Assembly: GCA_046290465.1 (NCBI GenBank)
Contig: JBKAGP010000001.1
Location: forward strand, 1,952,001 to 2,016,000
Origin: Planctomycetota bacterium
GTDB lineage: Bacteria > Planctomycetota > UBA1135 > UBA2386
Reading direction: 5' to 3'
Length of the DNA: 64,000 bases
In this document: one piece after another, positions 7,114-53,894 of the stretch
How the letters are laid out: each line of letters starts with the position of its first letter
Position numbering within the stretch: the stretch's first letter is position 1
The notes under the pieces: model-generated
What the model was told of the DNA's origin: nothing
The model's database searches: none
The model's input: the letters and a program-made list of their open reading frames with translations, nothing else
Translations under genes and position numbers: made by a program

Positions 7114-8313
7114 TCAACGTTCGCGGGGGATGCGCTGGCTGGCGCCGCCCAGAACCACCCGGCGAACGCGCGCCTCGTCGTGCACGAACGCGGCCAGCGT
7201 GGCCTGCCAGTCCCCCGCCGCGTCGACCGCGACGAGGTCGGCGCGACGGCCGCGCCGCAGCGCCCCGCACGCCACGCCGACGGCCCGCCCACCGTGCTCG
7301 GTGGCCATGCGCAGCAGCTGCGACGGCGACAGCGTCGGCCACAGCTCCGCCGCAAGGCGTAGCTCGCCGCGCAAGGTCATCGCGGTGTTGCTGGCGCGCG
7401 AGTCGGTGCCGAGCGCGACCGGCACGCCGCGTCGCAGCCAGCCGGGCACGTCGGGGGGCGTGCGGTCGAACCAGCGGATCGTGCCGGGACAGACCGCGAT
7501 CGACGCCCCGCTCGCGGCGATGCGCGCGACGTCGCCGCGCTCGAGTTCCTGGCAGTGCACCAGCTGCGTGGTCGGGCGCAGCAGCCCGAGCCGTTCGAGG
7601 TGGCGCACCGCGCCGCAGCCCGGCGGCCGGAAGTCGTCGGGCAGCCGACCGAGCGCCGCCAGCAGCTCCGCGAACGGCCCGTCGCCGTCGCGCAGGAACT
7701 GCTGCTCTTCGGGCAGCTCGGCGCAGTGGATCGCGAGGTGGCGACTGCGCCTGGCGGCGGCGCGGAACAGGTCGGCCGAGACCGAATACGGCGCGTGCGG
7801 CGACAGGCCGGGAGCCATCGGGCCGGCCTCGTCCGGCCATAGCGCGCGCGCGTGCGCGGTGGCGTCGCGGCCGCGCAGGTGGAAGCCGGTCAGCTCGCGG
7901 TAGAGCCGGCCGGCCAGCGGCACGCGCCGCAGCGCGGCCGACGTCAGGCCGGTCGAGTCGATCTCGCCGACCGCGGTCACGCCGCCGTGCAGCAGTTCGC
8001 GCAGGTGGCGCACCGCCTGCTCGCGCAGGTCGCGTTCGGTGCAGGCACCGCGCGCCGCCATCACCTCGCGCACCCACGGCAGGAACCGTCGCTCGGTCCG
8101 CGGCAGCGCCCCGAGTTGCAGGTGGGCATGGGCGTTGACCAGCCCCGGGAGCACGGCGACGTCCTCGACCCTGCGGGTCTCGCCGGCGCGCAGGCGCCGC
8201 AGCGAGACGATGCGGCCCCCGGCGTCCCAACGGACCAGGCCCGGGGCCAGCACGCGCTCGGCGTCGAGCGCGACGAAGCGCGCGGCGAGTTCGCCGCGCT
8301 CGGTCCGGATCAC
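7114..8313 (-). CDS. Amidohydrolase family deaminase (aminodeoxyfutalosine/SAH deaminase-like)
   Basis: PGLVNAHAHL, SPHAPYS, IHCAE, LVHC and ALGTDS motifs; GTG start overlaps the upstream stop. Confidence 0.85.
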   Translation of the reverse strand: MIRTERGELAARFVALDAERVLAPGLVRWDAGGRIVSLRRLRAGETRRVEDVAVLPGLVNAHAHLQLGALPRTERRFLPWVREVMAARGACTERDLREQAVRHLRELLHGGVTAVGEIDSTGLTSAALRRVPLAGRLYRELTGFHLRGRDATAHARALWPDEAGPMAPGLSPHAPYSVSADLFRAAARRSRHLAIHCAELPEEQQFLRDGDGPFAELLAALGRLPDDFRPPGCGAVRHLERLGLLRPTTQLVHCQELERGDVARIAASGASIAVCPGTIRWFDRTPPDVPGWLRRGVPVALGTDSRASNTAMTLRGELRLAAELWPTLSPSQLLRMATEHGGRAVGVACGALRRGRRADLVAVDAAGDWQATLAAFVHDEARVRRVVLGGASQRIPRER

Positions 8314-11075
8314 GTGCGCGCGAACACGCGCAGCGCCGTCACGACCATGTCGGGGAACAGCGCGCGGTTGTAGGTCATCCGGAAGCGGAAGCCGGTGATC
8401 GAGTCGAGCTGGATGCCCGGGCCCGAACCCGAACCGACGCCTTCGCGCCACGGCTTGATCGTGCCCTCGATCGGGGTCGTGCCCGACTGGTCGAGCTCGG
8501 CGCCCTGGAACTCGATGACCACCGGCAGCGTGATCGGGCCACCGACCTCGAAGGCCTTCTGCGTGCCCGCCGCACCCGAGTCGGTGTAGGTGATGTCGAC
8601 CACGCCGTCACCGTCGGTGTCGACGTCGAGTTCGTAGCGCTCCCACGTCGGCGGGAACACCAGGCCGGTCGCGTACCACAGCGACGCGTCCCCCGACAGG
8701 TCGTCGCGGTCGGTCAGCGGGCCGCTGTTCTCCCCGTTGACGAACGACGGGAACGACGTGCCGCCGAAGGCGACCACGCCGTTGGCCTCGAGGCGGAAGT
8801 AGCCGTCCGAGCCATTGCCGGCCTGGCCGGTCATCGCCTGCAGCGTGTTGACCATGAAGCCGACCTGGCTGCCCGCGGCGCCGCGGGTGTCGAGCGTGCC
8901 GCCGAACGACAGGTCGCGGCCGGCCTGCAGGACGAACGAGCCACCGGAGCCACCGCCGCCGGGCGACGAGATGCCGTAGGTGTCGGTCGTCGACGTGCTG
9001 TTCGGGTCGTCGCCCGAGATCACCACGCCCTGGCCACCGCGAGCGGTGAACACGGCCGTCGCGGCGATGGTCATCGTGCCGCCGCAGCGGATCGCGGCAG
9101 CGCCGCCACCGCCGGTGCCGGCGTGGCCCTTCATCCAACGCTCGGTCGGGTTCGGACCGATCGCGAGCAGGCCGTAGCCGTGGCTGCCACCACCACCACC
9201 GCCCGAGCCGGCGACCAGGAAGTGGTCGAGCGACGTGTAGCCGGGGGGCGGCGAGGTCGGCGGGTAGGGCATCAGGCTGAACGCCTGGCCGCCCGCGACG
9301 ATCGGCTCGCTGATGATCGTGTTGGTCGTGTTGGTGTGCACCGGCGTCGCCGCCTGGCCACCGGGACCGTTGAAGCCGCCACCGCCGCCACCGGGGCTGA
9401 AGTAGGCGCTAGAGACGTTGCCGACCGTCGGGAACGGCGCGCTGCCCCAGGTGCCGGTGGCCGGCGTCTGGATGCTGCCGACGCCGCCGGTGCCCGCGGC
9501 GTTGCCGGCGTAGGCGTGACCGGCGCGCAGGCCGATGTCCTCACCGGGCTGGCCGTCGGTCAGGTTGATGCCGCCGACGATCAGCGGGCCGGTGTCGTCA
9601 CCTTCCTGGCCGCCGTTGCCGCCGCGACCGGCGCCCGGGCCACCGAGCGTGCCCTGCTGGACCGCCGTGGTCGGGTTGCCGATGCGGGCGTTGAACGTCG
9701 AGGCGCGCAGGCCCGTCGCCGGACCCGAGGTCTGGATCGTGAACGGCAGGTCGCTGCCGTCGACGTCGATGGTGCCGGCGATGTTGACGTCGCCGCGCAC
9801 GCGCACGACCGGCGGCACGGTGCCGGTGAAGCGCACGGTCGTGCCTTCCGGAACCGAGAAGTCGGTGAAGAAGAACCGGCCGTCGGTGATCGTGTATTCC
9901 TGGCCGGTCAGCGAGACCGACTGCGGGATCACGAACAGGTCGGTGTTCCACTCGAACGTGTTGGCGCCGACCGGGTTGCCCAGCGTCGGGTCGAACGAGC
10001 CGTGACGGCCGTCGCCACCGATCAGGCCCGGACGCGCGCCGGGGCCCTGGGCACCGCCCCAGGTGCCGCCCGAGACGACCGGCTCCTGCTTGGAGTTGCT
10101 CTGGAACGTCTCGGTGATCTCGATCGGCGTCGAGACGCCTTCCTGCGTCAGGATGATGAACTTGGCCGGAACCGCCGAGCGACCCGACAGGTCGCGCAGG
10201 TCGGCGGTCACGCGCACCGTCAGGCACGAGTTGCCGGGCAGCTGCACCGACGGCGTGTAGGTCACCACCGTGACCTCGCGCTGGCCGACCACCTCGGTCG
10301 ACAGCTGCGGCAGGCCACCGAGCGCGATGCCCTCGGCCTCTTCGTCGCACAGGCCGTTCGGCAGCTGGCCACGCAGCACGACGCGGATCGGCGAGGCTTC
10401 GCCGAGCGAGACCTGCAGCGGGGTCGTGTCGATCAGCTCCGAGAAGCGCAGCACGATCGTCGGGTTGACCGGCGCGTTGGTCAGCTGGGTCGGCGCGATC
10501 AGCTCGACCATCGGCGGCGCCTGGTCCTCGTCGAGGATGCCGAGCGACGCCACCACCGTGCACGAGAACTCCTGCTCGAGGCCGTCGCCCGACAGGTTCT
10601 TGACGCTCTGCGCGATCGAGGGGCCGCCGGCCAGCGTGATGATGTAGCTCTCGTTGCGCTGGAAGCCGAACGTGCTGACGCCGTTGACCGTGGTCACACG
10701 CGGCACGAACACCACCTCCGAGCCGGTGACCTGGAAGTCGCCGGCCGGCGCGACGCCCGTCGCGGTGCGGATCGAGATGCTCGCGCCGTTGACTGTGTCG
10801 GGAGCGACCGCGTCCGAAAACTTGAAGCGGATCCGCTGGTTCTCGGCGATCTCCGTGACGGAGCAGCCCGTCTGCGAGCAGCCGAGGTCACAGCTGATGA
10901 TGCAGAAGGCCTGGCCACCGAGGCAGCGGATGCGCAGGGACGACGAGGCGTCGCCGCCGCCGCTGCCGCAGCTGGTCAGCACCAGCGCGGTGACGAAGAA
11001 CAGGATGGAGAGGGCGTTGCGCATGATGGATGCAGATTGGGTCGAGATGCGGTGCGTGCCGTTCGAATCGGACAT
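8310..11075 (-). CDS. Large glycine-rich Ig-like-domain lipoprotein, class A paralog 1
   Basis: Lipobox LTSC followed by GSGGG; Cys cluster; two Ig-like modules (IRFKFSDAV, IVLRFSELID...LRDLSG); IGGDGRHGSF; long Gly-rich region. Alternative start at 11024. Confidence 0.8.
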   Translation of the reverse strand: MSDSNGTHRISTQSASIMRNALSILFFVTALVLTSCGSGGGDASSSLRIRCLGGQAFCIISCDLGCSQTGCSVTEIAENQRIRFKFSDAVAPDTVNGASISIRTATGVAPAGDFQVTGSEVVFVPRVTTVNGVSTFGFQRNESYIITLAGGPSIAQSVKNLSGDGLEQEFSCTVVASLGILDEDQAPPMVELIAPTQLTNAPVNPTIVLRFSELIDTTPLQVSLGEASPIRVVLRGQLPNGLCDEEAEGIALGGLPQLSTEVVGQREVTVVTYTPSVQLPGNSCLTVRVTADLRDLSGRSAVPAKFIILTQEGVSTPIEITETFQSNSKQEPVVSGGTWGGAQGPGARPGLIGGDGRHGSFDPTLGNPVGANTFEWNTDLFVIPQSVSLTGQEYTITDGRFFFTDFSVPEGTTVRFTGTVPPVVRVRGDVNIAGTIDVDGSDLPFTIQTSGPATGLRASTFNARIGNPTTAVQQGTLGGPGAGRGGNGGQEGDDTGPLIVGGINLTDGQPGEDIGLRAGHAYAGNAAGTGGVGSIQTPATGTWGSAPFPTVGNVSSAYFSPGGGGGGFNGPGGQAATPVHTNTTNTIISEPIVAGGQAFSLMPYPPTSPPPGYTSLDHFLVAGSGGGGGGSHGYGLLAIGPNPTERWMKGHAGTGGGGAAAIRCGGTMTIAATAVFTARGGQGVVISGDDPNSTSTTDTYGISSPGGGGSGGSFVLQAGRDLSFGGTLDTRGAAGSQVGFMVNTLQAMTGQAGNGSDGYFRLEANGVVAFGGTSFPSFVNGENSGPLTDRDDLSGDASLWYATGLVFPPTWERYELDVDTDGDGVVDITYTDSGAAGTQKAFEVGGPITLPVVIEFQGAELDQSGTTPIEGTIKPWREGVGSGSGPGIQLDSITGFRFRMTYNRALFPDMVVTALRVFART

Positions 11076-13729
11076 CAGTTGCGGTAGACGACGGTGAGCT
11101 TGTCGATGGTCACGTTCGTCGCCACCGTGCGGTCGATGAACAGCATGTAGCGGTAGCCGTTGAGACCGTCCGAGGCGATGCCGGTCTGGTTCGAGCTGCT
11201 GCGGACCGAGCTGCGCCACGGGCGCGGCACGGCGTTGAGGACCTCACCGGTGGTGACGTCGAGGTTGGCGGCCTGGAACAGCACGCGGATCGGCGCGCCG
11301 ATCGTCGCCTCCATCGGCGACACGGACGGATCGTCGCTGAACGTCATCGGCACGCCGTCGACGGTCGCCTCGATCACGTAGCGGGTGAACTCCGGGCCGA
11401 AGATCAGCTCGGTCGAGTAGTAGAGCGACCGCATGCTGACCAGGTCGTCGACCTCGGTAAGCGTGCCGACGTTGTCGACGGTCGGAGCCGGCGACATCGA
11501 CGACAGGTCGCCGACGGTCGGCGCGGTCGGCTTCTCGAAGCGCACGAAGCCGGGGCCGCCGTCGCCGCCCTGGATCTCGACGATGCCGTTGTTCGGACCG
11601 AGGCCGTTGCCGCCCTGACGACGGAAGAAGCCACCGTTGCCGCCGCGCACGTCGATCTGGCCGATCAGCTCCGAGGTGCCCGCCGTCTGCATGACGATCG
11701 AGCCGCCCGAGCCGCCGCCCGCCGGCGCGACCTGCGCACCGGCCGAGGTGCCGACGTAGTCGAAGGCGCTGCCGCCGACCGCCAGCAGGCGACCGTTCGG
11801 ACCGACGCGGAACGAACGACCCGAGCGCAGCGCCATCGCGCCAGCGCCGCCGCCGCCACCGGCACCCGACGCCCACGACTTGGCGAGGCTGAGCGACAGC
11901 GTGCAGCCGCTGCCCGAACCGCCGCCGCCGGCGCCGCCGACGAGGAAGTGCTGCGAGCTCGGCTGCAGGCCGGCGCCCGGGAACGGGAACAGCTGGAACG
12001 CGACGCCGCCGGGGGCCGGCGGGCCCATGAACGTCGCGGCGTTCGCCAGCGGGGTCGTGCCGCTGAAGATGTTGACGACGCGGCCATCGTCCCCGGGCTG
12101 GTAGAGGCCGCCGCCGCTGCCGCCGGCCGTGGCCGACAGGCTGTAGGCGAGACCGACCGGCGGGTTCTGGCCGAACTGCTGGTCGGCGTCGAGGCCGGAC
12201 GCGGGGTAGAGCTCGGAGCCCTGGCCGCCGGTGCCGGCGCGCGCGCCGAGGTAGCCGTGGCCGGCGAGCACGTTGACGTCGTCGCCGTCGCGGCCGTTGA
12301 ACTGGCCACCGACACCGGTGCCGACGCCGGCGCAACGGTCGGCACCCTGGCCACCGTCCCCACCGAAGATGCCGCCCGAGGCACCCAGCTGGCCCGAGAA
12401 CGTGTTGCCGATCTGGTTGGTCGTGACGCTCTGGCCGTTGACCTCGATGTCGCCCTGGATGTCGAGGCGGCCGGCGATCGTGATCACCGGCGGCGTGCTG
12501 CCGACGAAGCGCAGGCGCGCGTCGCCCGGCACGACCATCTTCGAGAAGAAGTAGCGGCCGTTGGTGATCGTCACCGCGGTGCCCGTCGTGGTGTTCTCCG
12601 ACGGGATCACGGTGTTGTCCGTGTTGAGCTGGTAGACGCGCTTGCCGTCGACGATCTGCTCGGTGTCGAACGCCAGGTCGAGCGAGAACTCGCCGTGGCG
12701 GCCGTCGCCGCCGATCTCGGCGAACTCGGCGATGCCGCCGGTCCACGTGCCGGCCGACGCATCGGTGTCCATCTGCGACTCGTCGTCGAAGTTCTCGATG
12801 ATCTCGAAGTCACTCAGCGGCACTTCGACCGTCTTGAACGCGAACACCTGCGGCTGCGCGGTGCGGCCCGACAGGTCGGCGACGCCGTTGGTGACGCTGA
12901 TCTCGATGCAGACGTTGCCGGGCAGCTCCTGCGCCGGCGTGAACGCCAGGATCGACACGCCGCGCGCGGCGTCGAAGCTGAGCGCCTGCGAGCCGGCGAG
13001 CGTCTGCGGCTGCGACTCGGGGTCGCACTCGGTGCCGCCGTTGCCGTCGGGACGGGTGCGGCGCACGGTGAACTCGACCGGGCTGTTCTGGCCGCTGAGG
13101 AACGGCGTGGCGTCGATCAGCTCGTTGAACTCGAGCACGATCTCGCTGTCGAGCGGCGCGGCTTCGAGGTTGGTCGGCGAGACCAGCGTCGCGCTCGGCG
13201 GCACGCCGTTGAGGTCGACGATGCCCTTGGTCGACTGCAGCGTGCAGGTCAGCGTCTGCCCGAACGGCTTGCCCGACGTGCTGCGCACGACCTCGGACTG
13301 GTTCTGGCCGCCGAGGATCGTCATCGTGTAGGTCTCACCCGAGGTGAAGCCGAAGAACGTCTGGCCACCCGAGATCGACAGCGTCGGCACGAACTCGACG
13401 CGGTTGTCGTTGACCAGGAACTCCCCCACCGGCTCGTCGCCGGTCGGCGTGCGGAAGCGGATCGACGAGCTGTTGACCGAGTTCTCGTCGACGGCCTCGC
13501 TGAAGAACAGCACGATGATCTCGTTCTGCGCGATGTCGGTGCGCGAGCAGCCGGTCGACGAGCAGCCGAGGTTGCAGCTCGCCAGGCACAGCACGCGCGA
13601 CGAGTCGCTCGAGCCGCAGTCGAATCCGGTGCTGCCCACCGTGCTGCCGCCGCCGGAGCAGCCGAAGCCACTCAGTGCAAACACCAACAGAGCAACGAGT
13701 AGCGCGTATCGAGAAACACCAACAGTCAT
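11075..13729 (-). CDS. Large glycine-rich Ig-like-domain lipoprotein, class A paralog 2
   Basis: Signal peptide ending GFGC-SGGG; same motif order as paralog 1 (CLASCNLGCSSTGC, FVPT, TFFGF, IGGDGRHGEF, HFLVGGAGGGG). Confidence 0.8.
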   Translation of the reverse strand: MTVGVSRYALLVALLVFALSGFGCSGGGSTVGSTGFDCGSSDSSRVLCLASCNLGCSSTGCSRTDIAQNEIIVLFFSEAVDENSVNSSSIRFRTPTGDEPVGEFLVNDNRVEFVPTLSISGGQTFFGFTSGETYTMTILGGQNQSEVVRSTSGKPFGQTLTCTLQSTKGIVDLNGVPPSATLVSPTNLEAAPLDSEIVLEFNELIDATPFLSGQNSPVEFTVRRTRPDGNGGTECDPESQPQTLAGSQALSFDAARGVSILAFTPAQELPGNVCIEISVTNGVADLSGRTAQPQVFAFKTVEVPLSDFEIIENFDDESQMDTDASAGTWTGGIAEFAEIGGDGRHGEFSLDLAFDTEQIVDGKRVYQLNTDNTVIPSENTTTGTAVTITNGRYFFSKMVVPGDARLRFVGSTPPVITIAGRLDIQGDIEVNGQSVTTNQIGNTFSGQLGASGGIFGGDGGQGADRCAGVGTGVGGQFNGRDGDDVNVLAGHGYLGARAGTGGQGSELYPASGLDADQQFGQNPPVGLAYSLSATAGGSGGGLYQPGDDGRVVNIFSGTTPLANAATFMGPPAPGGVAFQLFPFPGAGLQPSSQHFLVGGAGGGGSGSGCTLSLSLAKSWASGAGGGGGAGAMALRSGRSFRVGPNGRLLAVGGSAFDYVGTSAGAQVAPAGGGSGGSIVMQTAGTSELIGQIDVRGGNGGFFRRQGGNGLGPNNGIVEIQGGDGGPGFVRFEKPTAPTVGDLSSMSPAPTVDNVGTLTEVDDLVSMRSLYYSTELIFGPEFTRYVIEATVDGVPMTFSDDPSVSPMEATIGAPIRVLFQAANLDVTTGEVLNAVPRPWRSSVRSSSNQTGIASDGLNGYRYMLFIDRTVATNVTIDKLTVVYRN

Positions 13730-14232: not shown

Positions 14233-15324
14233 ATGACTTCCGCAGCTCCCGAACGCCGCTCGCCGGCGACTGTTCTCCTGCTGACCGCGCTGACCGGCGT
14301 GGTCGCGTTCACCGGCTACCAGTCCTGGAGCAACGGCCGCCAGCTGCAGGACCAGGCCGAACGGCTGGCCGCATCGCAGCAGACCGTCGAGGAACTGCTC
14401 GGCGAGGTCACGCGCCTGCGCATCGAGCAGAGCGTGGACGGCATGGGCGCGCCGGCGCTGATCGAGCGGCTGCAGACCTACGCGCCGCTGATGTCGGATG
14501 CGCGCGTGACCGAGCCCGACTACAAGAACGCCAAGAAGGAGATCGTCGCGATCTTGCGCGCGTTCGAATCGCTCGACAAGGAAGAGGCTTGGGGACCGGT
14601 GGTCGCGCGCCTCGAGGAGGCCGATCCGCGCAAGGACTTCGAGGAGGTCAAGTGGCTGCTCGAGATCGCGGTGCGCGTCGACCTGACCGCCGGCAAGCAG
14701 ATCGTCAAGGAGGTCATGCTCGGCCTGCGGCTGCCCAACCCGCGGCTGCGCTGGTTCGCCTGCCGGGTGATGACCGAGCGCGACATCCAGCTCGCCCGCC
14801 AGCTGATGCGGCGGATCCTCGACACCGAGTCGGCGCGCGGCATCAACACCGACCGCGCGGCGACCTACGGCATGGCGGTCCCCGACAAGGCGGCCTACGC
14901 GGTCACCGGCTTCAACAACTTCGTCAGCCGCTACCTGCAGACCGACGATCCGAAGACCGAGGACACGCTGATCCAGCTGCTGCACCGCGTCGAGCACGAC
15001 CAGATCACCATCCAGGAGTGCGTGCGCGAACTCGGCCGGCGCAAGAGCAAGCGCGCCGTCAAGCTGATCAAGAAGCTCTACGACAACCCGCCGCTCGCGC
15101 AGCAGAACCCGCTGTTCTTCGGGCACGTGATCGACGCGATCGCGACCATCGAGGGCAAGGACTCGATCGAGTGGCTCGAGTCGAAGCTGCCGACCGCGGC
15201 GACCGACGTGGTCGCCGCGCGCATCCAGAACGCGCTCGACTGCGTGCGCGCCGGCAAGCCGGTGATGCCGCAGGTGCCGCAGGCCGGCATGGGCAACCGA
15301 CTCAACGCGGCGCGCGGCCGCTAG
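14233..15324 (+). CDS. Hypothetical membrane-anchored helical protein (coiled coil plus HEAT-like repeats)
   Basis: N-terminal TM segment, Q/E/L heptad region, amphipathic helical C-terminus; strong codon bias. Confidence 0.75.
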   Translation: MTSAAPERRSPATVLLLTALTGVVAFTGYQSWSNGRQLQDQAERLAASQQTVEELLGEVTRLRIEQSVDGMGAPALIERLQTYAPLMSDARVTEPDYKNAKKEIVAILRAFESLDKEEAWGPVVARLEEADPRKDFEEVKWLLEIAVRVDLTAGKQIVKEVMLGLRLPNPRLRWFACRVMTERDIQLARQLMRRILDTESARGINTDRAATYGMAVPDKAAYAVTGFNNFVSRYLQTDDPKTEDTLIQLLHRVEHDQITIQECVRELGRRKSKRAVKLIKKLYDNPPLAQQNPLFFGHVIDAIATIEGKDSIEWLESKLPTAATDVVAARIQNALDCVRAGKPVMPQVPQAGMGNRLNAARGR

Positions 15325-15341
15325 GGTGCCGCGTCGCGGCG

Positions 15342-29993: not shown

Positions 29994-30081
29994 TTGGTTC
30001 TCCATTGACAACCGATTGATGGATGCAGCCCGACATGGGCCGCGTTTCGTTTCCCCTAACTCTCTTTCCTTCTGATCCCGC

Positions 30082-30960: not shown

Positions 30961-30989
30961 AGCTTCCCTTCGCCTCTGCCGGTGGCGGC

Positions 30990-32225: not shown

Positions 32226-32277
32226 CGTCTGCCGTCCCCGTATTCCGTTCCCTTGATTCCCCTGACGACGTCGCGGA

Positions 32278-33993: not shown

Positions 33994-33996
33994 GGC

Positions 33997-37997: not shown

Positions 37998-38642
37998 CTA
38001 CAGGGTGTCGCCGACGACGATCTCAACCCGCCGGTTCGAGGCCTTGTTGCCCCGGTTGAGCGGATCGAACTGGCCGTAGCCGACGATGACGATGGCCGAC
38101 TCGGGCACGCCCTGCTGGATCAGGTAGCGCGCGACGGCGTCGGCGCGCTTGGCCGACAGGTCGCGGTTGCTCGAGTACTTGTCCTTGGTCTTGCTGATCG
38201 GGTCGGTGTCGGTGTGGCCCTCGACGAAGAACCGGCGACCCGAGAACTTCGAGCGCAGCGCCGACGCGACGTTGCGCAGCACCTGGTGGGCCGAGCTCTT
38301 CAACGCGACGCTGCCCGAGTCGAACGTGACCCGGTTGTTGACGCCGATGCTGATGCGACCGCGGCGGTAGCTGACGTCGGCGTCGGTGCCGAGGTCGTTC
38401 TGCAGTTCGTTCAGCAGGCTGTTCGGTTCGCGGCGCGGCGCGGCGGCCTCGACCGGCGCCGGGCGCGAGGAGAGGCGGTTCTGCAACTCCTCGTTCTCGC
38501 CACGGAGGCGGGCGATGTCGCCGTTGAGCGCGCGGATGCGGTCGTCGCGATCGCGCAACATGTCTTGGTAGCGCGTGGTGCAGCTCGTGGCCAGCGACGT
38601 GGCGATGAGCGAGAGAATGAGGAATGCCTTACGGAACTTCAT
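37998..38642 (-). CDS. OmpA/MotB C-terminal domain lipoprotein
   Basis: Lipobox ATSC; coiled coil; FDSGS, VEGHTD, N..LS..RA..V and NRRVEI motifs. Confidence 0.9.
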   Translation of the reverse strand: MKFRKAFLILSLIATSLATSCTTRYQDMLRDRDDRIRALNGDIARLRGENEELQNRLSSRPAPVEAAAPRREPNSLLNELQNDLGTDADVSYRRGRISIGVNNRVTFDSGSVALKSSAHQVLRNVASALRSKFSGRRFFVEGHTDTDPISKTKDKYSSNRDLSAKRADAVARYLIQQGVPESAIVIVGYGQFDPLNRGNKASNRRVEIVVGDTL

Positions 38643-45000: not shown

Positions 45001-46007
45001 TTGACCGTGAGCACGTTGTTGGCGGCGTCGACGCTGACGATGCCCATCGGCAGCGAACCGACCAGCTTCGGCGCCTCCGGCTCCAGCAGGCGGCCGGCTT
45101 CGCCGTCCTGCAGGTTGCCCGAACGGAAGTCGCGGATGACCGACTGGCGGCCGGCGCTGTCCACGCCGTTGAGCTCGGTGACGCCATCGCGATCGATGTA
45201 GAACGACGACAGCACCTGCCCGCGGCTCGGGATCGCGACGCGGATGTTCGCGGTCACGTTGTCGGCCGAGGTCGGCATGCCCGCCGACGTGATGCCGCCG
45301 CCGGCCTCACCACCGAGGATGGTCGTGTCCAGCACCAGCGAGTTGGTGCCGACGACCATGCGGTACGGCAGGATGCGGAACGCGTCGACCGGCTCGACGA
45401 AGTTCGGGTCGCCCTTGAACTCGAGCAGCTGCACCGCCGACGGGTTGGCCGCGAAGAAGTCGGCCGAGGCGCTGAGCGGGCCCGTGAAGGTCAGCTTGAT
45501 CGCCGCGTTGCGCGGCACGATCGGGATCGGGCGCGTCTGCGTGTTCTGGCCGCGGTACGAGTCCGGCAGCGGCACCAGGCCGGTCTGCGCGTTGCTCAGG
45601 GCCTGGTTGAAGTTCTGCTGCTCCGGGCCGGCGCGGTCGTCCCACAGGATCACCAGCTGCTCGTGGCCGACGTCCTTGTCGAACGGCAGGAACTCGTAGT
45701 TGGCGGTCGCCACCGCGTTGCCCGCGGCGTCGAAGATCGACTGCGACTCGATGCCGGGGTTGACCACGACATCCTGCGCGATCAGCTCCAGCTGACGGTT
45801 GCTGCGCAGGCGGCGGTCGCCGACGCTCGGGTCGATCCGGCGGAACGCGTATACGTCGACGAGTCGACCGATCTCGACCCTCGCCAGCGACGGGTTGTTG
45901 CCGTCCTGGCCGACCTGGCCAACCGTCGAGCTCCCGTCACATGCCCACAGGGCGGTGAGGGCGACGGCCAGTGGCCACGCTCGGAACCGGTTCTTCGCTT
46001 GCATCAT
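42057..46007 (-). CDS. Very large Ig-like-domain lipoprotein, class B paralog 1
   Basis: Lipobox LWAC; GRLVDVY, IVPRNAAI, ANIRVA, IRDFRSGN, IEQLYWSP, DEFDR and IALPLL are shared with 49950..53894. Confidence 0.8.
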   Translation of the reverse strand: MMQAKNRFRAWPLAVALTALWACDGSSTVGQVGQDGNNPSLARVEIGRLVDVYAFRRIDPSVGDRRLRSNRQLELIAQDVVVNPGIESQSIFDAAGNAVATANYEFLPFDKDVGHEQLVILWDDRAGPEQQNFNQALSNAQTGLVPLPDSYRGQNTQTRPIPIVPRNAAIKLTFTGPLSASADFFAANPSAVQLLEFKGDPNFVEPVDAFRILPYRMVVGTNSLVLDTTILGGEAGGGITSAGMPTSADNVTANIRVAIPSRGQVLSSFYIDRDGVTELNGVDSAGRQSVIRDFRSGNLQDGEAGRLLEPEAPKLVGSLPMGIVSVDAANNVLTVNKRLNFVPIRARYPFVDGPLDSTGLPLGPLTVPVQRPLEAGDLISQEVIVQLSTGLFETVTVRAEVLENLSITAQAGDPSLGKAPNAPSGDSGQGETVPVVNLRVATISPVRDSEGNRVSFKANTTPAGEDCTLRASYVEEVPFAVGGGALTDRAWRNLFVRIEPAPGQPGVDIDPDASIAFEFNKPMDLDQVDVTDNLLLTKPDQPNQSFGSQMTDPKRATMHVVPSRLTDLDGDGTVLRLQPQLGFAHQAGLAEVYSAHIRLGNAGITDLAGNTLEIFDDISNPQEAWSVDFQLDPSANSNLIGWHTYMFTSEDEDGTQPGSVDLFGQFRLENGRLTGATGVRFRRSANNNNLAAISRINRGECWDSGQPDNSDPPPAEPNNPFNYPGTEATQNQLILPRLGAPGVVPVDTQGAPHPGLLYWEPRMSDQVNPPAVPQVYEYYQQLPQPSGRVIEPMKPQGSRMQMRYIEDDFSLGYTQPSDFGLDIEQLYWSPFNDETVLYDEFDRFTMSLGHARTRADERWVLVVDATPESWCVLDCASMNSGLSNVFADNVLDGSQMTPVFEDRIYTINPNDVRRDEFGVAYVPFPRFDQTYTWRDSRLVTVDASGNVIGLGGAQNPNANVPNNDVTAHIDSPWITSRPDPEFLQGGSGTWVMDNEDFVGFLQRDHDPIALPLLVDMKVFPEDPANGVASATNGFQVAMLGPPSVNNSIGGYYDTFGSGCGGGFPPWPRVRVHASGGFDLITGAEILVDPANALQANAQNIVKDPALGNAVTALFQAPPGDGMLYWARADFVRRVSTVTFGFFDTLQPQRAELVDQNQQVQALPGYPDWLSVNPNLRMSDVLVQLDPPQTQQPAGTGVVVEMRGCETFDNNNVLYNPSFGANPDDTITRGNLLNVNYACEAYRYSTPNFNAAPRIAADGMTAYVTEDQVSDIRDPATGLLPRFLNLRLVMSNNVDVSPALSPSLRSMSVVYRLTPGQ

Positions 46008-46180: not shown

Positions 46181-49100
46181 CTAGAACCGGAACGGCAGGC
46201 GGAGGAAGTGCAGTTCCGGACGCGGGGTCTCGGGGTTGAGGCCCGGCGGCGAATCGGCGGCGACCGCTCGGAACGCCGTGTCGAACGTCAGGTCCCACTG
46301 CACGAAGCTGGCGCCGAGCTGGCGAACCTGCTCCTGCACGGCCGGGTCCGTCAGGTCGTAGAGGAACGTGCCCTCCTGCGCCGGCAGGCGCTGCGCCGAC
46401 GGGTCGGCCGGGTTCTGGTGGAACGCGAAGCCGAAGCGGATGTTCGAGACCGGCACGCGGTTCGACGCGCTGCCGGCGTAGGTCGGGCCGAGGCCTTCGC
46501 TGCCGTTGGTCACGATCGAGAAGAACTTGGCGATGACGCGGACCTGCGTGGCCGCGACCTCGAGCGCACCCGACTCGGGCGACAGCACCAGTTCGTTCTG
46601 CGTGTGCGCCAGGATCCGGTAGCTGCCGAGCACCTCGTTGCTCGACGCGAGCAGCTGCGCCTCGTACTGGACGTAGCGGTCGTCGGTCTGCCCCATCGCC
46701 GCCGAGGCCAGCGTGACCCGGTAGGCCGGGCGGCCCAGGTAGGTCGAGTTGGCGTTGCGGTTCAGGATGCCGACCGGAGCGACGACCTCGGGGTTGACGA
46801 CGCGCGCCTGGCCCTGCACGACCTCGAACTTGGCGTAGCCGAGTGAGACGCTCGACGCGTTGTCCTCGACGCCGAGCCACTCGTACTTCGGACCGGCCTG
46901 CGCGCCCGCCTGCTCGACGATGCCGCGCGGCAGGTTGTCGTCGGCGATCAGCGCGCGGCGCGCGGTGGCGCCGGTGTCGATCCACTTCGAGCGCAGGCGC
47001 GAGGTGTTGGCGAACGGCGACGGCAGCAGCACCGGCGCCGGCCGGATCTCGCCCTCGTCCTCGTTGAGCGGGTTGACCGGCTGGCCCTGGTCGTCGACGC
47101 CGATGCCGAACGAGTTCGGGAAGCCCTGCCAGCGCAGCAGGTCGATCTTGCTCTGGCCGAGCGCCTCGATGCCGCCGGTGAAGACGCGGATGTTGTCGTC
47201 GAGCACCGTGTTGGTGTTGTCGACGCTGTTGTCCCCCGGCGGCACCATCAGCTGCACGATGCCCATGCCGCCGAAGCCGCCGAGCGGCGCGTCGTCGTAG
47301 GTCTCGACCCAGCTGTTGATGGCGATGTCGGGGTTGTAGGTGATCGCGGTGCCGCTCGCCGGGTACTTGCCCGTCACGACCGGCGGCTGGGCGCCGGTGA
47401 CGCACACGCCACCGTCGGCCGAGATCGCGAAGTCGTAGTCGTTGTCCTCGTACGAGTAGTTCAGGCCGTTGCCCGAGCTGGCGTTGATCACGATGCCCTT
47501 GGCCGACATCAGGATGACCATGCCGCCGGCACCACCGCCGCCACCGCCACCGCGGGTCGACGACGAGGACGGCTCACCACCGCCACCGCTGCCGCCGTCG
47601 GCGGTGATGCGACCACCTTCGTTGATAATGATCTCCTCGAGCGCCTTGACGATCAGCACGCCGCCGCCGCCACCGCCGCCGCCGCCGGAGCTGTCGTTCT
47701 CGAAGTTCGGGTCGGTGACGCCGCAGTCCGAGTTGTACGACAGGTCGCCGCCGCCGCCGCCACCGCCGCCGCCGATCGGGACCGACAGCTCACCGGTGAT
47801 GCGGAGGTTGGTATCGTAGCGAACACCGACGCCCCAGAAGTTGTTGTCGTTGCGGGCATCGACGAACACCGTCGGACCCGGGACCGCGCCCTCGAGGCTG
47901 CGGGTCGGGCGACCGGTGTCGCCTTCGCAGCCCTGGCCGCCGACGCCCGTCTGCTGCTGGAACACCGGGAACGGGTTGACCGGGGCCGGGTTGCCGGTGC
48001 CGATCGGGACCGTGCCCGCCGGCTGGATCTGCTGCTTGAAGCCCGGGTCCCCCTGGGTCGCGAGCGAGCCGCCACCGCCACCAGCGCCGCGGCCACAGCC
48101 AGCGGTGCACGACAGCGCGCCGCCGCGGCCACCCTGGCCGGCGGCCTGCAGCGGGCCGTTGCCGGTCTCACCGGCGAGGTCGCGCTCGGTCGCGCTCGGC
48201 GAGCCGGCGCCGCCGTCACCGCCGCCACACACGCCCGCGCCGCCGCTCTTGGCGACGTTGGCGTTGCCCGACGTGTTGACGCGCTGGCCGTCGCCACCGC
48301 GGACCGACAGCGTGCCCGAGACCTCGAAGGTCTCCGACACCAGCCAGACCATCGGGTTGGTGCCCTGGCCCTGGACCGTGCGGCCGGCCGGGATGTTGAC
48401 GCTGCGGAAGTTGAAGACGCCGCCCGAGACGTTGAACGGCGAGCCGTTCTTGGGCTGGACCAGCGTGAAGTCCGTGTTGAGCACGGTCATCGGCGCGGTC
48501 GGCTCGAACTCGGCTCCGGTGACGTTGCCTTCGAAGTCGAAGCCCGCCTTCAGGAAGCCGGGGCCGACTTCGCCGACCGGCTCCGAGAACGCGGCGGTCA
48601 TGTCGACGTTGGAGGTCGCCAGGAAGTCGTCGACCAGGCCGTCGAACTGCTGCTCGTAGGCGCGGCGCGTCTTGAAGGTCGCGAAGATCCGCTCGTAGGC
48701 GACGTTGGCGACGTTCGACTCACCGGAGATGTCCTCGAGGGTGCGCTCGACGACGACGCGGATGGTCGCGTTGTTCGGCAGCACACCGAGCGGACGCATG
48801 ACCAGCGTGGCGCCGTCCGAGGCGTTCGTCTCGAGCTCGACGTCGGCCGGGATCCAGACGTTGTCGCCGAACTCCGGGTCGTCGTACTCGAGGAACACCC
48901 GGCCGCGGCTGTTGCTGTTGCGCGTCAGCGGGTCGGTCTGGATCGCGGTCGGCACGTTGGTGCTCGACGGGTTGAGCGGCTGGTCGAAGCGCAGACGCAG
49001 CTCGACCGGGGCCGCGCCCAGCTTGTTCAGCACGACGCCGGTGGTGTCCGGCGTCGGGGTGACCTCGAACGCCGTCCGCCTCGGCCCGCCCGGCGCCGTG

Positions 49101-49630
49101 TTGCGGAACAGCGCCGACGGCGTCGTGCCGTCGGCCGTCTTGAAGCGGAACGTGCGCGGCAGCGCCAGCGCCTTGCCGCCGACGTCCCGCAGCACCGTGC
49201 CGTTGTTGCGGTTGCCCCCCACCAGCTGCACCTCGTAGGTGCGGCCCGGGCGGAAGCCGCCGTTGGTGTAGAGGTTGTTGGTCGGCAGCACCGGCACGAA
49301 GCGCAGACGACGGCCCGCTTCCGTGTCACCCGGACTGGTGCCCAGCTCGAAGCGACCGGCGACCGGTTCGGCGACCGGCTGCCCGATCTGGTCGAAGACC
49401 TGGAACGTGAAGGTCGACAGGTTGACCGAGTCGAGGTTCACGCGGTTGCTGAAGTCGATCCGGATCGGGTCGTTCAGGAACAGTTGGCCGTTGTCACTCG
49501 GCTCGGTGCTGAGGACGACGAAGTCGCCTCCGGTCTTGACGCCCCCGGTCGAGCCACCGCCGCCGCCACAGGAGGCGAGAGCAGCCAGAACGGCCAGGGA
49601 GAACAGTCGGGTGGTGGACACTCGAGTCAT
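46181..49630 (-). CDS. Large glycine-rich Ig-like-domain lipoprotein, class A (long) paralog
   Basis: Lipobox LASC-GGGGG; two Ig-like modules; GVFNFRSVNIP..VQG; several poly-Gly tracts; SKWIDTG. Confidence 0.8.
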   Translation of the reverse strand: MTRVSTTRLFSLAVLAALASCGGGGGSTGGVKTGGDFVVLSTEPSDNGQLFLNDPIRIDFSNRVNLDSVNLSTFTFQVFDQIGQPVAEPVAGRFELGTSPGDTEAGRRLRFVPVLPTNNLYTNGGFRPGRTYEVQLVGGNRNNGTVLRDVGGKALALPRTFRFKTADGTTPSALFRNTAPGGPRRTAFEVTPTPDTTGVVLNKLGAAPVELRLRFDQPLNPSSTNVPTAIQTDPLTRNSNSRGRVFLEYDDPEFGDNVWIPADVELETNASDGATLVMRPLGVLPNNATIRVVVERTLEDISGESNVANVAYERIFATFKTRRAYEQQFDGLVDDFLATSNVDMTAAFSEPVGEVGPGFLKAGFDFEGNVTGAEFEPTAPMTVLNTDFTLVQPKNGSPFNVSGGVFNFRSVNIPAGRTVQGQGTNPMVWLVSETFEVSGTLSVRGGDGQRVNTSGNANVAKSGGAGVCGGGDGGAGSPSATERDLAGETGNGPLQAAGQGGRGGALSCTAGCGRGAGGGGGSLATQGDPGFKQQIQPAGTVPIGTGNPAPVNPFPVFQQQTGVGGQGCEGDTGRPTRSLEGAVPGPTVFVDARNDNNFWGVGVRYDTNLRITGELSVPIGGGGGGGGGDLSYNSDCGVTDPNFENDSSGGGGGGGGGVLIVKALEEIIINEGGRITADGGSGGGGEPSSSSTRGGGGGGGAGGMVILMSAKGIVINASSGNGLNYSYEDNDYDFAISADGGVCVTGAQPPVVTGKYPASGTAITYNPDIAINSWVETYDDAPLGGFGGMGIVQLMVPPGDNSVDNTNTVLDDNIRVFTGGIEALGQSKIDLLRWQGFPNSFGIGVDDQGQPVNPLNEDEGEIRPAPVLLPSPFANTSRLRSKWIDTGATARRALIADDNLPRGIVEQAGAQAGPKYEWLGVEDNASSVSLGYAKFEVVQGQARVVNPEVVAPVGILNRNANSTYLGRPAYRVTLASAAMGQTDDRYVQYEAQLLASSNEVLGSYRILAHTQNELVLSPESGALEVAATQVRVIAKFFSIVTNGSEGLGPTYAGSASNRVPVSNIRFGFAFHQNPADPSAQRLPAQEGTFLYDLTDPAVQEQVRQLGASFVQWDLTFDTAFRAVAADSPPGLNPETPRPELHFLRLPFRF

Positions 49631-49949: not shown

Positions 49950-52900
49950 CTACTGCTGCTGCCAGCGGTAGGAGAGCGCGAAGGTCTCGATCGTCGGCGA
50001 GACCGGCGGGTTGGCTTCGGCGTTGTTGGCCGCGATGAAGCGCCAGTTGACGAAGCGGATGTCGCGCGGGTTGAACGTCTCGTTCGGGCCCGCGAAGTCC
50101 AGCGTGTAGGCCGGATCCATCAGCGTGTTCGGGTCCTCGACGTAGGTCGTGACCGTGCGGTTGTAGAGGTAGGTCCACCAGTTCCGCGCCTGGGACGAAC
50201 CCGGGATCGGACGGTTGTCCCACTTGCGCATGTGTGCGTCGCCGGCCTTGAACGGGTCGAGCGGGAAGTTGTCGTTGGTCGGCCGCAGCTGGGCGCGGTC
50301 GTTCGCCGAGAACTCGTTGTTGGTGAACAGCGACGACGAGTTGGCGATCCAGGCGTTGTAGTAGAACGGGATCGTGTCGACGGCGCTGGCGCCGCGGAAC
50401 TGCGGCACGATCGACGTGCCCGACGGCAGCAGCGACAGCGGCGGGTCGAACTCGTAGGCGAACGACGGCAGCACGCCCTGCGGCGCGGCCGGCTGGCCGT
50501 TGACCAGGTAGAACGGACCGAGGCGCGGGTCCTCGAAACCTTCCGGCACCCGGTGCGGGTTGTAGAGGTCGATGAAGCCGTTGGTGATGACGGTCTGGCG
50601 CTTCGCGCAGTCCATCATGATCCAGTAGAACGTGTTGTCGCCACCACCGGCCGGCGTCACGCCGCCGGTCGGGGTGAAGCCACCCGAGGCGGTGTTCCAC
50701 TGGCTGTCGCCGGGGCCGCGGCAGATCGGCGGCGAACCGTTCGGCAGCGCGGCGCGGCCGGCGCTGACGACGCGGAAGTTCGGCTTCGGGTCGGACTGGA
50801 CCGTCACCGCGGTCTGCCAACCGTTGGTGCCGAGCGCGATGTAGCCACCACCCGCCGGGAGCTCCGACGAGTCGCAGTAGGTCCAGAAGTCGGCCAGCAG
50901 CGGCAGCGCGATGTTGCCCATCAGGCCGCCGGTGTAGTCGTCGACGTTGGCCGGCGTCGCCAGCGAGTGGCTGCGGGCGTCGTTCCAGTAGCTGTTGACG
51001 AAGCGCACGGCGCCGGGGGCACCGTCGTCGTCGATCCAGCGGCTGCCCTGACCCATGCTGAACGGCGACAGGATGTAGGGCGCGTAGTCGGCGCCGTTGA
51101 TGTCCGAGCCGTCGTTCGGCGAGTCGGCCGAACGGCCGCCCTGCTCGATGACCGTCTCGTCGCGGTAGACGAAGTAGGGCTCCTGGAAGGTCGGCAGCGG
51201 CAGGAAGCGGTTGACCTGGTTGACCTCGAGCACGACCTGCGACGGATCGATCACCATGTTGGTGTCGACGTAGGCCGCGTTGCGGGGCGCCTGGCTCTCG
51301 ATCGTGTTGCCGTTGCCGCTCGGGACGCCGTTCCAGGCGAAGTTGCGCTCGAACGACGTGCGCAGACCCGACTGGGTGAACGACGGCAGCGAGCTGAAGT
51401 CCCCGACACACGGGATCGGGCGGTACTCCGAGTGGCCGAGCCACATCGACACGCGGTCGAACTCGTCGAACGTCAGGTTGGTGCCCGTGTAGGGCGCCCA
51501 GTACATCTGCTCGATGTCGAGGTTGAAGTCGAACGGGTCGGTGCGCGACAGGCTCAGGTCGATCTCGCGCCAGACGGTCTGCAGGCGGCAGCCGTACGGG
51601 TTCAGCGGGTTCTGGATGCCGGCAGGCACCAGGTTGTTCGCCGAGTTCGAGCCGACCTGCGTCTCGTTGGTGAAGAACTGCGGGCACCAGCCGAGCGGGT
51701 TCTGCGGCGCCGGCGTGGCCGGCTGCTGCTGGATCGGCGACTGGTTGAGGTTGTCGGCGACCACGCGCACGCGGGTCGTCGGGCGCGCCTGCAGCTTGTT
51801 GTCGAGGTAGAGGAACGCGCCGAACATGTCCTCGAGCGGGTAGGCCTTGGCGATCTGCGCCTGGCCTTCCCCCTGCACCTCTTCGGGCAGGAAGTAGCTC
51901 GGCCGGGCGTCCTCGTCGCGCGACGCGAAGCGGCGCACGATGTTGATCGACAGGTTGTCGGCGAACACCGGCTCGGCGCCGTTCATGCGGGTGTCGACCG
52001 TGAACGGGATCACCACGCTGTTGCTGCGATCGGCGGTCGTGCCCTGCAGGTCGAGCGGGTTGCCCGCCAGGTCCTTGATGCCACCGTCGTCCGAGTCGGA
52101 GATCAGGTGCAGGAAGTAGCGGTAGTCGGCGCCCGACGGCGGGTTCCGCATCGTGTCGTCGAGGTAGAAGCCGGTCGACGGCTGCAGGCGCAGCGACGTC
52201 TGCGAACCGTCCTCGTCGAACACGCGCGACGTGATCAGGTAGGGCGTGCGGTACTTCGCCAGGTCGAACGTGGCCGGGTTCATGCCCGTGCCGGTGACGC
52301 CGCCGTTGTTCCACGGCCGGCTGGCGATGAACTCCTCGATGCTGTCCTCGGTCGAGAGGTCGCGCATCGCGAAGAAGAACGTGTCGGCCCACTTGACCGT
52401 CTCGAGGTCGATCGGCTTCGTGAAGCGCACGACCGCGCCGGCGAACGGCGACACGAACTCGTTCTGCTGCGGGCGGTAGCCGTTCAGCTCGAGCGGCGCC
52501 GGCGTGAACTGCAGGAAGTTGCGCGGATCGTCGCGGCCCTCGGCGGCGCCGGCGGTGAACTCGGCGACGACGACCGAACGCGGCGCGTTGAGCACCAGCC
52601 ACGGCTCCCGTTCGGAGAGCGACGACGGGTAGCCCGGCAGGTTGCGCGGGTCGATGGTCTCGAGGTTCTCGATGCGCCGGATGCGCACGCGCACGTGCTG
52701 CACGGCCGGGTTGTCGCGGTCGTCCTCCGGGTCGACGACGACCTCGGCGCTGCCGAACGGCACGCCCGACGAGTCGTTGACGAAGCGGATCACGTCGCCG
52801 CGGTCGATCTCGTGGCTGAGGCCGTTCTTGTAGACCGTGACCTCCTGCGTGAACTGGTTGATGCTCTCGACGCGCTCGAGATACATCGGGATCTCACCGA

Positions 52901-53894
52901 TGACGCGCAGCGGCAGCGGATCGCGCACGAAGCCCCGCGCGATGTCGGCCGAGTCGTCGTTCTGGTTGCCCGAACGGAAGTCGCGCACGATCGAGTTGCG
53001 CTGGCTGTTGTTCAGGCCGGACAGGCCGCCGCTGGTCTGCAGGCGCAGGCCCGGAATCGCCAGCGGGCCCTCGAGGGCCAGCGCGACGCGGATGTTGGCG
53101 CCGAACTGGTCCGGCGAGGCCGGCAGGCCGGCCGCGTTGTTGGCGGTCTGGTACTGCAGGCCCTCGGTGCCAAGCAGCACCGGGTCGAGCACCAGCTGCG
53201 ACTCACCCACCACGATTCGGACCGGCATCGGCACGAAGCCGTTCGGCTGCGTCGGGTCGTCGACGATGCGCAGCAGCTGCACCGCCTCGGTGTTGCGCAG
53301 TTCGTTGACCTGGCCGTTGGCGTCGCGGCCGACGAAGAAGCTGTCGTCGATGCCGAGCTTGGCCGAGAAGCGCAGGCGGATGCCGGCGTTGCGCGGCACG
53401 ACCGAGAACGGCACGCCGTTGCTCTGCTGGCCGAACAGCATCGGCGAGACCGTGCGCAGCTGGTCGTCGAGCGCCTCGAAGGCGGTCGCGAACTCGGTGC
53501 CGGTCACGTCGCGCGGGATGAACAGTCGCGCCTGCAGCGTGTCCGGGTCGGTGCCGATGAAGTCGTAGGTGATCTCGCTGTCGGACAGGTTCGAGTTGGT
53601 CCCGCGCTGATCCTGGATGTTGCCGCCGATGACCACGTCCTTGCGATACAGCGTGATCGTCGAACCCTGCGGCGTGATCTGCAGGCCGTAGACGTCGACC
53701 AGGCGGCCGTATTCGACTGCGACCAGTTCGGGCTGCACGGTCGCGCCGGGGGTCGTGTTGGCGACACCGCCGCCGCCACTGCCGCTACATCCGCCGAGGG
53801 AGAGCGCGCCGAGCGCGAACGCGCCGGCCAGCAGGAGCTGGGAGCCGAGGGAGCGACCGGGGGCGCCGGTCGGCGTGCAATTGTCTGCCATCAT
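49950..53894 (-). CDS. Very large Ig-like-domain lipoprotein, class B paralog 2
   Basis: Lipobox LGGC-SGSGGG; collinear motifs with 42057..46007; start uncertain (53891/53894/53924). Confidence 0.8.
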   Translation of the reverse strand: MMADNCTPTGAPGRSLGSQLLLAGAFALGALSLGGCSGSGGGGVANTTPGATVQPELVAVEYGRLVDVYGLQITPQGSTITLYRKDVVIGGNIQDQRGTNSNLSDSEITYDFIGTDPDTLQARLFIPRDVTGTEFATAFEALDDQLRTVSPMLFGQQSNGVPFSVVPRNAGIRLRFSAKLGIDDSFFVGRDANGQVNELRNTEAVQLLRIVDDPTQPNGFVPMPVRIVVGESQLVLDPVLLGTEGLQYQTANNAAGLPASPDQFGANIRVALALEGPLAIPGLRLQTSGGLSGLNNSQRNSIVRDFRSGNQNDDSADIARGFVRDPLPLRVIGEIPMYLERVESINQFTQEVTVYKNGLSHEIDRGDVIRFVNDSSGVPFGSAEVVVDPEDDRDNPAVQHVRVRIRRIENLETIDPRNLPGYPSSLSEREPWLVLNAPRSVVVAEFTAGAAEGRDDPRNFLQFTPAPLELNGYRPQQNEFVSPFAGAVVRFTKPIDLETVKWADTFFFAMRDLSTEDSIEEFIASRPWNNGGVTGTGMNPATFDLAKYRTPYLITSRVFDEDGSQTSLRLQPSTGFYLDDTMRNPPSGADYRYFLHLISDSDDGGIKDLAGNPLDLQGTTADRSNSVVIPFTVDTRMNGAEPVFADNLSINIVRRFASRDEDARPSYFLPEEVQGEGQAQIAKAYPLEDMFGAFLYLDNKLQARPTTRVRVVADNLNQSPIQQQPATPAPQNPLGWCPQFFTNETQVGSNSANNLVPAGIQNPLNPYGCRLQTVWREIDLSLSRTDPFDFNLDIEQMYWAPYTGTNLTFDEFDRVSMWLGHSEYRPIPCVGDFSSLPSFTQSGLRTSFERNFAWNGVPSGNGNTIESQAPRNAAYVDTNMVIDPSQVVLEVNQVNRFLPLPTFQEPYFVYRDETVIEQGGRSADSPNDGSDINGADYAPYILSPFSMGQGSRWIDDDGAPGAVRFVNSYWNDARSHSLATPANVDDYTGGLMGNIALPLLADFWTYCDSSELPAGGGYIALGTNGWQTAVTVQSDPKPNFRVVSAGRAALPNGSPPICRGPGDSQWNTASGGFTPTGGVTPAGGGDNTFYWIMMDCAKRQTVITNGFIDLYNPHRVPEGFEDPRLGPFYLVNGQPAAPQGVLPSFAYEFDPPLSLLPSGTSIVPQFRGASAVDTIPFYYNAWIANSSSLFTNNEFSANDRAQLRPTNDNFPLDPFKAGDAHMRKWDNRPIPGSSQARNWWTYLYNRTVTTYVEDPNTLMDPAYTLDFAGPNETFNPRDIRFVNWRFIAANNAEANPPVSPTIETFALSYRWQQQ

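Follow-up and report, generated by a model that had tools for sequence, protein, structure and literature searches.

Surface layers (S-layers) that are lipid-anchored and rich in immunoglobulin-like (Ig) modules are established in Deinococcus, with HPI, and in haloarchaea, with csg, and polyglycine-II sandwich adhesins are represented by phage gp38 and by the glycine-rich domain of ALK/LTK. The portion of 10.1101/817700 covered here describes Engelhardtia mirabilis as having shape-shifting cells, type IV pilus genes, peptidoglycan and a fragile outer membrane, with highly curved, interconnected invaginations seen by cryo-electron tomography, and 10.64898/2026.10.26.761892, also covered in part, separates the Saltatorellus clade from Planctomycetia, Phycisphaerae and Brocadiia. 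Here, we describe seven large lipoprotein genes in a 64,000-nucleotide stretch of a Planctomycetota genome (GenBank assembly GCA_046290465.1, contig JBKAGP010000001.1, positions 1,952,001 to 2,016,000 of the forward strand), referred to throughout as the window. The superfamily to which they belong is real and lineage-defining, is without a curated model, and consists of known folds in a new arrangement. We tentatively propose, from sequences and structure models, that these lipoproteins would together build an envelope coat or scaffold anchored in the membrane, most likely at the outer surface and independent of the pilus encoded beside them.

The open reading frames of all seven genes, listed below with their likely starts as the higher coordinate, have the same ends as in an earlier, sequence-only reading of this DNA, sum to ~21.3 kb and show coding-type G+C content at third codon positions (0.93-0.96), so that the seven minus-strand genes of about 21 kb counted in that reading are confirmed. 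For A1a there is an alternative ATG at 11075, overlapping the A1b stop (TGATG).

8310..11024, minus strand: A1a, lipoprotein with two Ig domains and a jelly-roll bearing a Gly-rich head, 886 amino acids (aa) mature
11075..13729, minus strand: A1b, paralogue of A1a and A1c, 861 aa mature
15342..18017, minus strand: A1c, a further paralogue, 856 aa mature
39953..41836, minus strand: A3, short class-A lipoprotein without the Gly-rich head, 595 aa mature
42057..46007, minus strand: B2, class-B lipoprotein with Asp at +2, 1294 aa mature
46181..49630, minus strand: A2, core class-A lipoprotein, 1129 aa mature
49950..53894, minus strand: B1, core class-B lipoprotein, 1279 aa mature

By inspection, each of the seven begins with a hydrophobic signal that ends in a lipobox Cys, as had been claimed, and a simple pattern finds a lipobox-like signal in 87/120, 111/120 and 128/149 homologues in three sets; the proteins are acidic in composition and low in Lys. 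BLASTP divides them into two classes, A and B. Within class A, A1a, A1b and A1c share 35-49% mutual identity, A2 and A3 are related to them at 23-30% in partial alignments, and class B consists of B1 and B2 (25% identity). The Pfam Ig model Big_5 (PF13205) scores above its cut-off in five of the seven genes and below it in B2 (E 0.0075), and a search of Pfam gave no Big_5 match for B1; the class-B structure model nevertheless carries Big_5-type Ig folds. The sequence-only reading had taken all seven to be giant Gly-rich proteins with Ig modules, in two sequence classes forming two clusters. Of this description, the two classes stand, as do the Ig modules for the five genes with Pfam matches and, by predicted fold, for the modelled members of both classes, with B1 lacking a Pfam match; Gly-richness applies to A1a-c and A2 (15-17% Gly) and not to A3, B2 and B1 (8-10%), and class does not follow cluster, the left cluster being all A1 and the right running B1-A2-B2-A3.

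The shared design of the two classes is best seen in the structure models, which were generated with AlphaFold for A2 from the window itself and for B1 through its L011 orthologue (44% identical in the alignment), with domains assigned by VIA-align. Predicted local distance difference test scores are 90.5 for the B orthologue and 90.3 for A2, with predicted template modelling (TM) scores of 0.87 and 0.82, and the domain order is identical in the two models. In B, an Ig domain (residues 19-280) precedes a second one (296-563; Z 7.9 to both SbsC and CopC) that has a barrel inserted at 302-408, after which comes a split jelly-roll (578-1125), whose segments near 578-613 and 963-1125 surround a beta-sandwich, lectin-like head (614-962) and whose fold resembles CBM16, Eph, Fbs and phage nozzle proteins at Z 6.3-7.3. 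In A2, the Ig domains span 16-148 (Z 10-11) and 165-302 and the split jelly-roll 307-1129 (Z up to 7.8), with a head at 346-845 formed by a beta-helix interleaved with Gly-rich runs and a barrel at 928-1014. Fold matches at Z below 8 may reflect common folds. The Gly-rich runs are modelled confidently without regular secondary structure, and neither phage gp38 nor the ALK/LTK glycine-rich domain is among the 50 listed fold matches of the A2 model, in which the head was folded as part of the whole chain. The head of B holds 33 of the 65 positions conserved in at least 90% of 150 B sequences, Asp, Glu, His, Ser and Arg among them, a pattern that could speak for an extracytoplasmic enzyme or uptake receptor with its active site in this conserved head. 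We regard such a function as highly improbable: many of the conserved positions are Gly or Pro, B has no match to an enzyme family, and its head matches non-catalytic sandwich domains (Z ~7).

Domain-wise profile comparison supports the descent of A and B from a common ancestor, since the C-terminal jelly-roll halves of A2 and B match with 95% probability (E 2e-8) and their Ig domains with 94-95%, well above the 0.2-0.4% of four mismatched control domain pairs; the full-length profiles reach only 78%. The barrels of A2 and B have the same fold type without any signal of relationship in sequence, at a profile probability of 0.2%. Compared with A2, the A1 profile is strongly related in its Ig domains and head and weakly at the C-terminus, and A3 is strongly related in its first Ig domain, the rest being weak or without match; the C-terminal part of A3 gave no match to the C-terminal profiles of A2 and B. 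In some families A3 has shrunk to ~230-270 aa and comprises the Ig part only.

We found no full-length match for the lipoproteins in Pfam, NCBIfam or PDB, and the absence of any curated family covering them from end to end agrees with the earlier reading, to which no named system of this composition was known. NCBIfam and PHROGs gave no real match, the best PDB sequence matches to the B and A2 profiles have E 0.11 and 0.25, and the ESM Atlas holds only unnamed or Big_5 clusters, below 0.9. Foldseek, for which the sequence-only reading had also called, returned no whole-chain match for either confident model (query-normalised TM <=0.11); the top matches for B (phi812 baseplate, E 9e-8) were rejected as whole-chain homologues at a TM of ~0.1 and a root-mean-square deviation (rmsd) above 30. 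We found no published description of the family in a literature search that extended to open papers and to passages from the main texts of 10.1101/817700 and 10.64898/2026.10.26.761892; the word 'lipoprotein' does not occur in the passages of the former.

A profile of 24 B proteins recovers B from 201/201 genomes of the source class, 200 of them at E <= 2e-145 and including genomes of 1.8-2.5 Mb, and A2 is present in 41/41 relatives. A sample of the phylum comprised 401 genomes, 373 of them from outside the class. Of these 373, 27 encode full-length B (E < 1e-80) and 29 full-length A2 (E < 1e-50); both occur together in 27 genomes, A2 alone in two and B alone in none, the 27 falling in five families (f26, f30, f68, f93 and f103) and so not being independent. 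The joint occurrence of A and B, named as a check in the sequence-only reading, is thereby borne out (27/29 outside the class, with B class-wide), and on the proteins and their joint conservation the earlier reading was right. About a dozen further families have shorter, distant relatives, and 273/401 genomes are without a B match in a search that scored two candidates per genome and from which weak relatives may escape. Neither B nor A2 was found in the 24 genomes of family f13; one tested f13 genome has 53 DUF1559 matches, an expansion we take to be typical of Planctomycetia, to which f13 presumably belongs. The cultured E. mirabilis has a class-B homologue (WP_145068104.1; P0423, annotated as 'Ig-like domain-containing protein') that scores 705 bits on the B profile, inside the range of class members. 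A representative library yields 515 proteins at E <= 1e-30, and homologues that carry a source name come mostly from Planctomycetota. One member of a B1 cluster, P0428, is deposited as a Symbiodinium protein and probably stems from bacterial contamination of an algal assembly.

Gene order adds to this picture. The two lipoprotein clusters are, to judge by synteny, the ends of one old conserved locus, because the order B-A2-A3-pilD...A1 recurs across relatives; in full, this home locus runs coaX, trmE, pyrB, B (one to three copies), A2, A3, pilD, ompA, EF-G2, pilT, pilB, pilC, pilin, optional glycosyltransferase genes, a TatD-like gene, A1, amidohydrolase and DHH. Of 79 B loci, 50 have the home-like arrangement and 17 carry orphan B copies, and the other 12 stretches are too short for a call. 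We tallied 16 families from fetched stretches by BLASTP against the window proteins (one to six genomes for most families): an A2-like gene adjoins B in 14, with coaX/trmE/pyrB upstream in 14 and pilD downstream in 10, pilT-pilC is at the locus in seven, and glycosyltransferase genes of families GT2/GT4 in four. In a tree of 46 B sequences (quick method, midpoint root) the copies cluster by family; f1 and f7 share a B1/B2 split, and f2, f9, f30 and f93 have had duplications of their own. In four closer genomes the divergence rates of B and A2 are close to those of pilD and ompA, and in two distant genomes they are higher; they exceed the rates of pyrB, EF-G2 and pilT/B/C and are no lower than that of cystathionine beta-synthase. 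At L069, L166, L167 and L168 (f33, f42 and f61), pilT-PDZ-coaX-pyrB is followed, at the usual position, by a B-like gene of only 680-870 aa and by an A-like gene, and in f42 and f61 radical SAM/SPASM genes replace pilD after this pair.

The source genome carries four extra paralogues away from the locus. Three of them, two orphan paralogues of A2 (53-54%) and one of B1 (59%), lie at C1:1763485-1767114, 2521255-2524773 and 4565006-4569139. At C1:6211433-6214564, an A1-type jelly-roll with its Gly-rich head, 48% to A1a across 607 aa, sits behind an unrelated N-terminal region of ~460 aa, which indicates that the A1 head module is mobile. Orphan and tandem copies and this fused head would suit lipoproteins that act as independent surface adhesins or glycan receptors, united by a common ancestor and locus and forming no fixed complex, and the fold matches to CBM16, Fbs lectins, the lectin-like domain of Cwp84 and ice-binding beta-helices point the same way. 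Adhesins are, however, usually patchy in distribution, whereas B is found in every genome of the class and tracks A2 closely, and we think it unlikely that the set is no more than a collection of separate adhesins.

A heteromeric coat or scaffold is the best reading of the lipoprotein set, because B is class-wide, A2 and B co-occur, they are adjacent in 14/16 families and their predicted architecture is shared. Such a coat would be built in the following way. Each protein would be exported by the Sec pathway and lipidated at its Cys, the signal being visible in the sequence and the processing following established lipoprotein biology, and the two predicted SbsC/CopC-type Ig domains would hold the remainder off the membrane. 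The jelly-roll formed by two distant chain segments, common to A and B, may serve as an assembly platform, from which the lectin-like sandwich of B and the beta-helix and Gly runs of A would present glycan-binding or adhesive surfaces. The minimal set would be one B, A2, A3 and A1, passed on by vertical inheritance with local duplication, as the tree shows for B and synteny for the others. The coat would most likely lie on the outer face of the outer membrane.

Several observations weigh against this proposal. Outside the class, A and B co-occur in five families that are related to one another. The B profile drew on 14 of the genomes concerned and the A2 profile on two, and the E-value cut-offs for both were chosen afterwards, at gaps in the match lists. 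The fetched A2 and B copies of f30 and f93 lie apart from each other and from the pil genes, and copy number varies, from one to three B genes in tandem to the 17/79 orphan B loci, which argues against a fixed stoichiometry. The jelly-roll and head matches, at Z 6-7.8, stay within what common folds give. Finally, the covered part of 10.1101/817700, with its cryo-electron tomography of E. mirabilis, has 'S-layer' in none of its sentences and describes the outer membrane as fragile.

The site of the lipoproteins also has a second, rather improbable interpretation, namely a periplasm-facing scaffold on the inner or outer membrane that would tether or curve membranes together with the OmpA-domain protein. 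The gene for the latter is in the same block in most loci of the class, periplasmic alpha-2-macroglobulin and L,D-transpeptidases have Ig stalks of a similar kind, and Asp at +2, as in B2, is the inner-membrane retention signal of E. coli. The curved invaginations of E. mirabilis (10.1101/817700, in the part covered) would fit as well. On the other side, Ser and Gly predominate at +2 among homologues, no ompA turned up at the f68 and f103 loci, and heads of the beta-helix or lectin-like kind are commoner in proteins of the cell surface.

Whether the lipoproteins depend on the neighbouring pilus can be judged from the genes that lie between and around the two clusters of the window:

14233..15324, plus strand: membrane-anchored HEAT-repeat protein
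~24080-24826, plus strand: TatD-like gene (label from motif)
25050..26915, minus strand: membrane protein with tetratricopeptide repeats (TPRs) and an N-terminal DD motif, with only TPR matches
26912..29193, minus strand: GT4 and GT2 glycosyltransferases
29310..35121, minus strand: pilin, TPR protein, pilC, pilB and pilT
35326..38642, minus strand: EF-G2 and OmpA-domain coiled-coil protein
38706..39665, minus strand: prepilin peptidase pilD
54265..58701, minus strand: pyrB, mnmE/trmE-like gene (label read from sequence), coaX and PDZ protein

The sequence-only reading had placed pil genes, an OmpA lipoprotein and three glycosyltransferases between the clusters, of which pilT, pilB, pilC, pilin, pilD, the OmpA-domain protein, GT2 and GT4 are recovered, and the third glycosyltransferase (25050) has TPR matches only; its label as a TMTC-like enzyme is our assumption from the DD motif and found no confirmation in the searches. 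The interval also encodes cystathionine beta-synthase, a MoCF-biosynthesis protein, TPR proteins and unrelated metabolic genes.

The same reading had the lipoproteins working with the pilus. They might then be its accessory apparatus or the cargo of a type II-like secretion system, and the position of pilD lends this some support: it follows the A block in 25/25 scorable loci, a synteny that had been proposed as a check, and a second pilT and a PDZ gene are often found upstream. Upstream housekeeping genes are equally well kept, pyrB and trmE preceding B in 39/39 scorable loci, so that coaX/trmE/pyrB are conserved beside B as well as pilD or better. Moreover, pilT-pilB-pilC are gone from between pilD and A1/amidohydrolase in f9 (6/6 loci), f6 (1/1) and f68 (6/6), all of which keep the lipoproteins, and joint loss or retention with pilB-pilT-pilC thus fails in these families. 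The closest match to the window PilB in four f9 genomes of 89-92% completeness has an identity of 39-41%, whereas an f10 control reaches 52%, and nothing comparable to the window pilin turned up; five f9 genomes have one PilT-sized match each, in another cluster. Because PilT-family genes exceed the TIGR01420 cut-off in 393/401 Planctomycetota genomes, co-occurrence with PilT is uninformative. That count contrasts with the statement in the covered part of 10.1101/817700 that Planctomycetes seem to be without a retraction ATPase.

Loci L169-L174 of f9 retain pilD and, behind EF-G2, a pilin-like gene of divergent sequence, which could be taken in favour of a pilus or secretion link, and f9 genomes have four to six secretin matches, so that export of the lipoproteins there via another pilus-type system is possible. 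The source genome has seven secretin matches, none of them in the window, and 13 matches to T2SSE-family ATPases, and here too another export system may operate. We nonetheless think a role as pilus accessory or secretion cargo quite improbable. Since pyrB/trmE are equally kept and pilT-pilB-pilC have been lost in three families, the neighbourhood with the pilus is best read as inherited gene order, and the dependence of the lipoproteins on the pilus and glycosylation locus, as first read, is probably wrong. The proposed link to glycosyltransferases is likewise not supported, GT2/GT4 being seen at the locus in four of the ten families that have pilD there.

Among the remaining neighbours, the HEAT-repeat homologue adjoins A1 in f1 and f7, and the TatD-like gene, on the opposite strand, lies just upstream of A1 in 18/19 loci examined. 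The pyrB gene (54265-55620) is fused to the PyrI C-terminal metal-binding domain, as it is in L056. The pair rpsL-rpsG (58983-59865) is not followed by fusA; an EF-G2-type gene (35326-37383) lies 21 kb downstream, in the lipoprotein/pil block. A promoter and terminator scan of 37-57 kb returned no promoter-like sites and no minus-strand terminator, and is uninformative at 70% GC. The raw RNA runs X15 and X17 place five and three reads on 20 kb, with none on the lipoprotein genes and almost none on the window. X1, possibly DNA, and X2, both of them contig runs, reach the lipoprotein genes at low depth, contigs being unable to rank expression.

Since B, a protein of 1000-1300 residues without a family model, is present in all searched genomes of the class, the smallest included, it is probably a core part of the class envelope. 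The shape-shifting and invaginations of E. mirabilis, which has a B homologue, are without a known structural basis in the covered part of 10.1101/817700, and the lipoprotein genes offer concrete targets for study of this envelope as well as a marker for a branch of the phylum, none having been found in the 24 f13 genomes. A bolder and rather unlikely extension is that B, A2, A3 and A1 form a multi-subunit, lipid-anchored coat that defines the Saltatorellus branch, would underlie its shape-shifting and curved membranes, and would represent a flexible alternative to a crystalline S-layer.

Several known systems invite comparison. The type IV pilus accessory adhesin PilY1 and the surface lipoproteins PulA and SslE, which are exported by type II secretion systems, are also large extracytoplasmic proteins encoded beside pilD and pilB/pilC, but the lipoproteins here have no match to a beta-propeller, vWA or enzyme domain and are kept after loss of the local pil motor; the PilY1 beta-propeller in particular gave no match in Pfam or NCBIfam and is absent from the listed fold matches of B and A2. 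Phage tail nozzle and baseplate proteins (Pa223, VP1, SU10, HFTV1 and phi812) likewise have a jelly-roll whose N- and C-terminal segments enclose a large insert (Z 6.3-7.8), but these Z values are in the common-fold range, the query-normalised TM in BFVD is at most 0.11, the best PHROG match has E 0.0085, and the genes described here are chromosomal core genes with lipoboxes. E. coli alpha-2-macroglobulin, on whose MG0-NIE-MG1 domains A2 residues 8-302 superpose (Z 9.8, rmsd 6.5), and Mycobacterium LdtMt2, matched by a single Ig domain (Z 10.5), are both envelope lipoproteins with Ig stalks, yet their thioester or transpeptidase domains are not matched here. With Deinococcus HPI and haloarchaeal csg the lipoproteins share a lipid anchor, Ig modules, an acidic, low-Lys composition and, in some lineages, nearby glycosyltransferases; they differ in comprising at least four different subunits, no sequence or fold match to HPI or csg is reported, and the covered part of 10.1101/817700 mentions no lattice on E. 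mirabilis. S-layer proteins as a whole gave no sequence match and, in fold, the single domain of SbsC. Onto this domain of the Geobacillus S-layer protein the two N-terminal Ig domains superpose at Z 7.5-10 (for A2, Z 10.0 and rmsd 2.8 over 98 aligned residues); the likeness covers ~100 residues only, at a whole-chain TM-score of at most 0.2, and to such Ig domains the lipoproteins described here add a lipid anchor signal, a split jelly-roll and a nested head.

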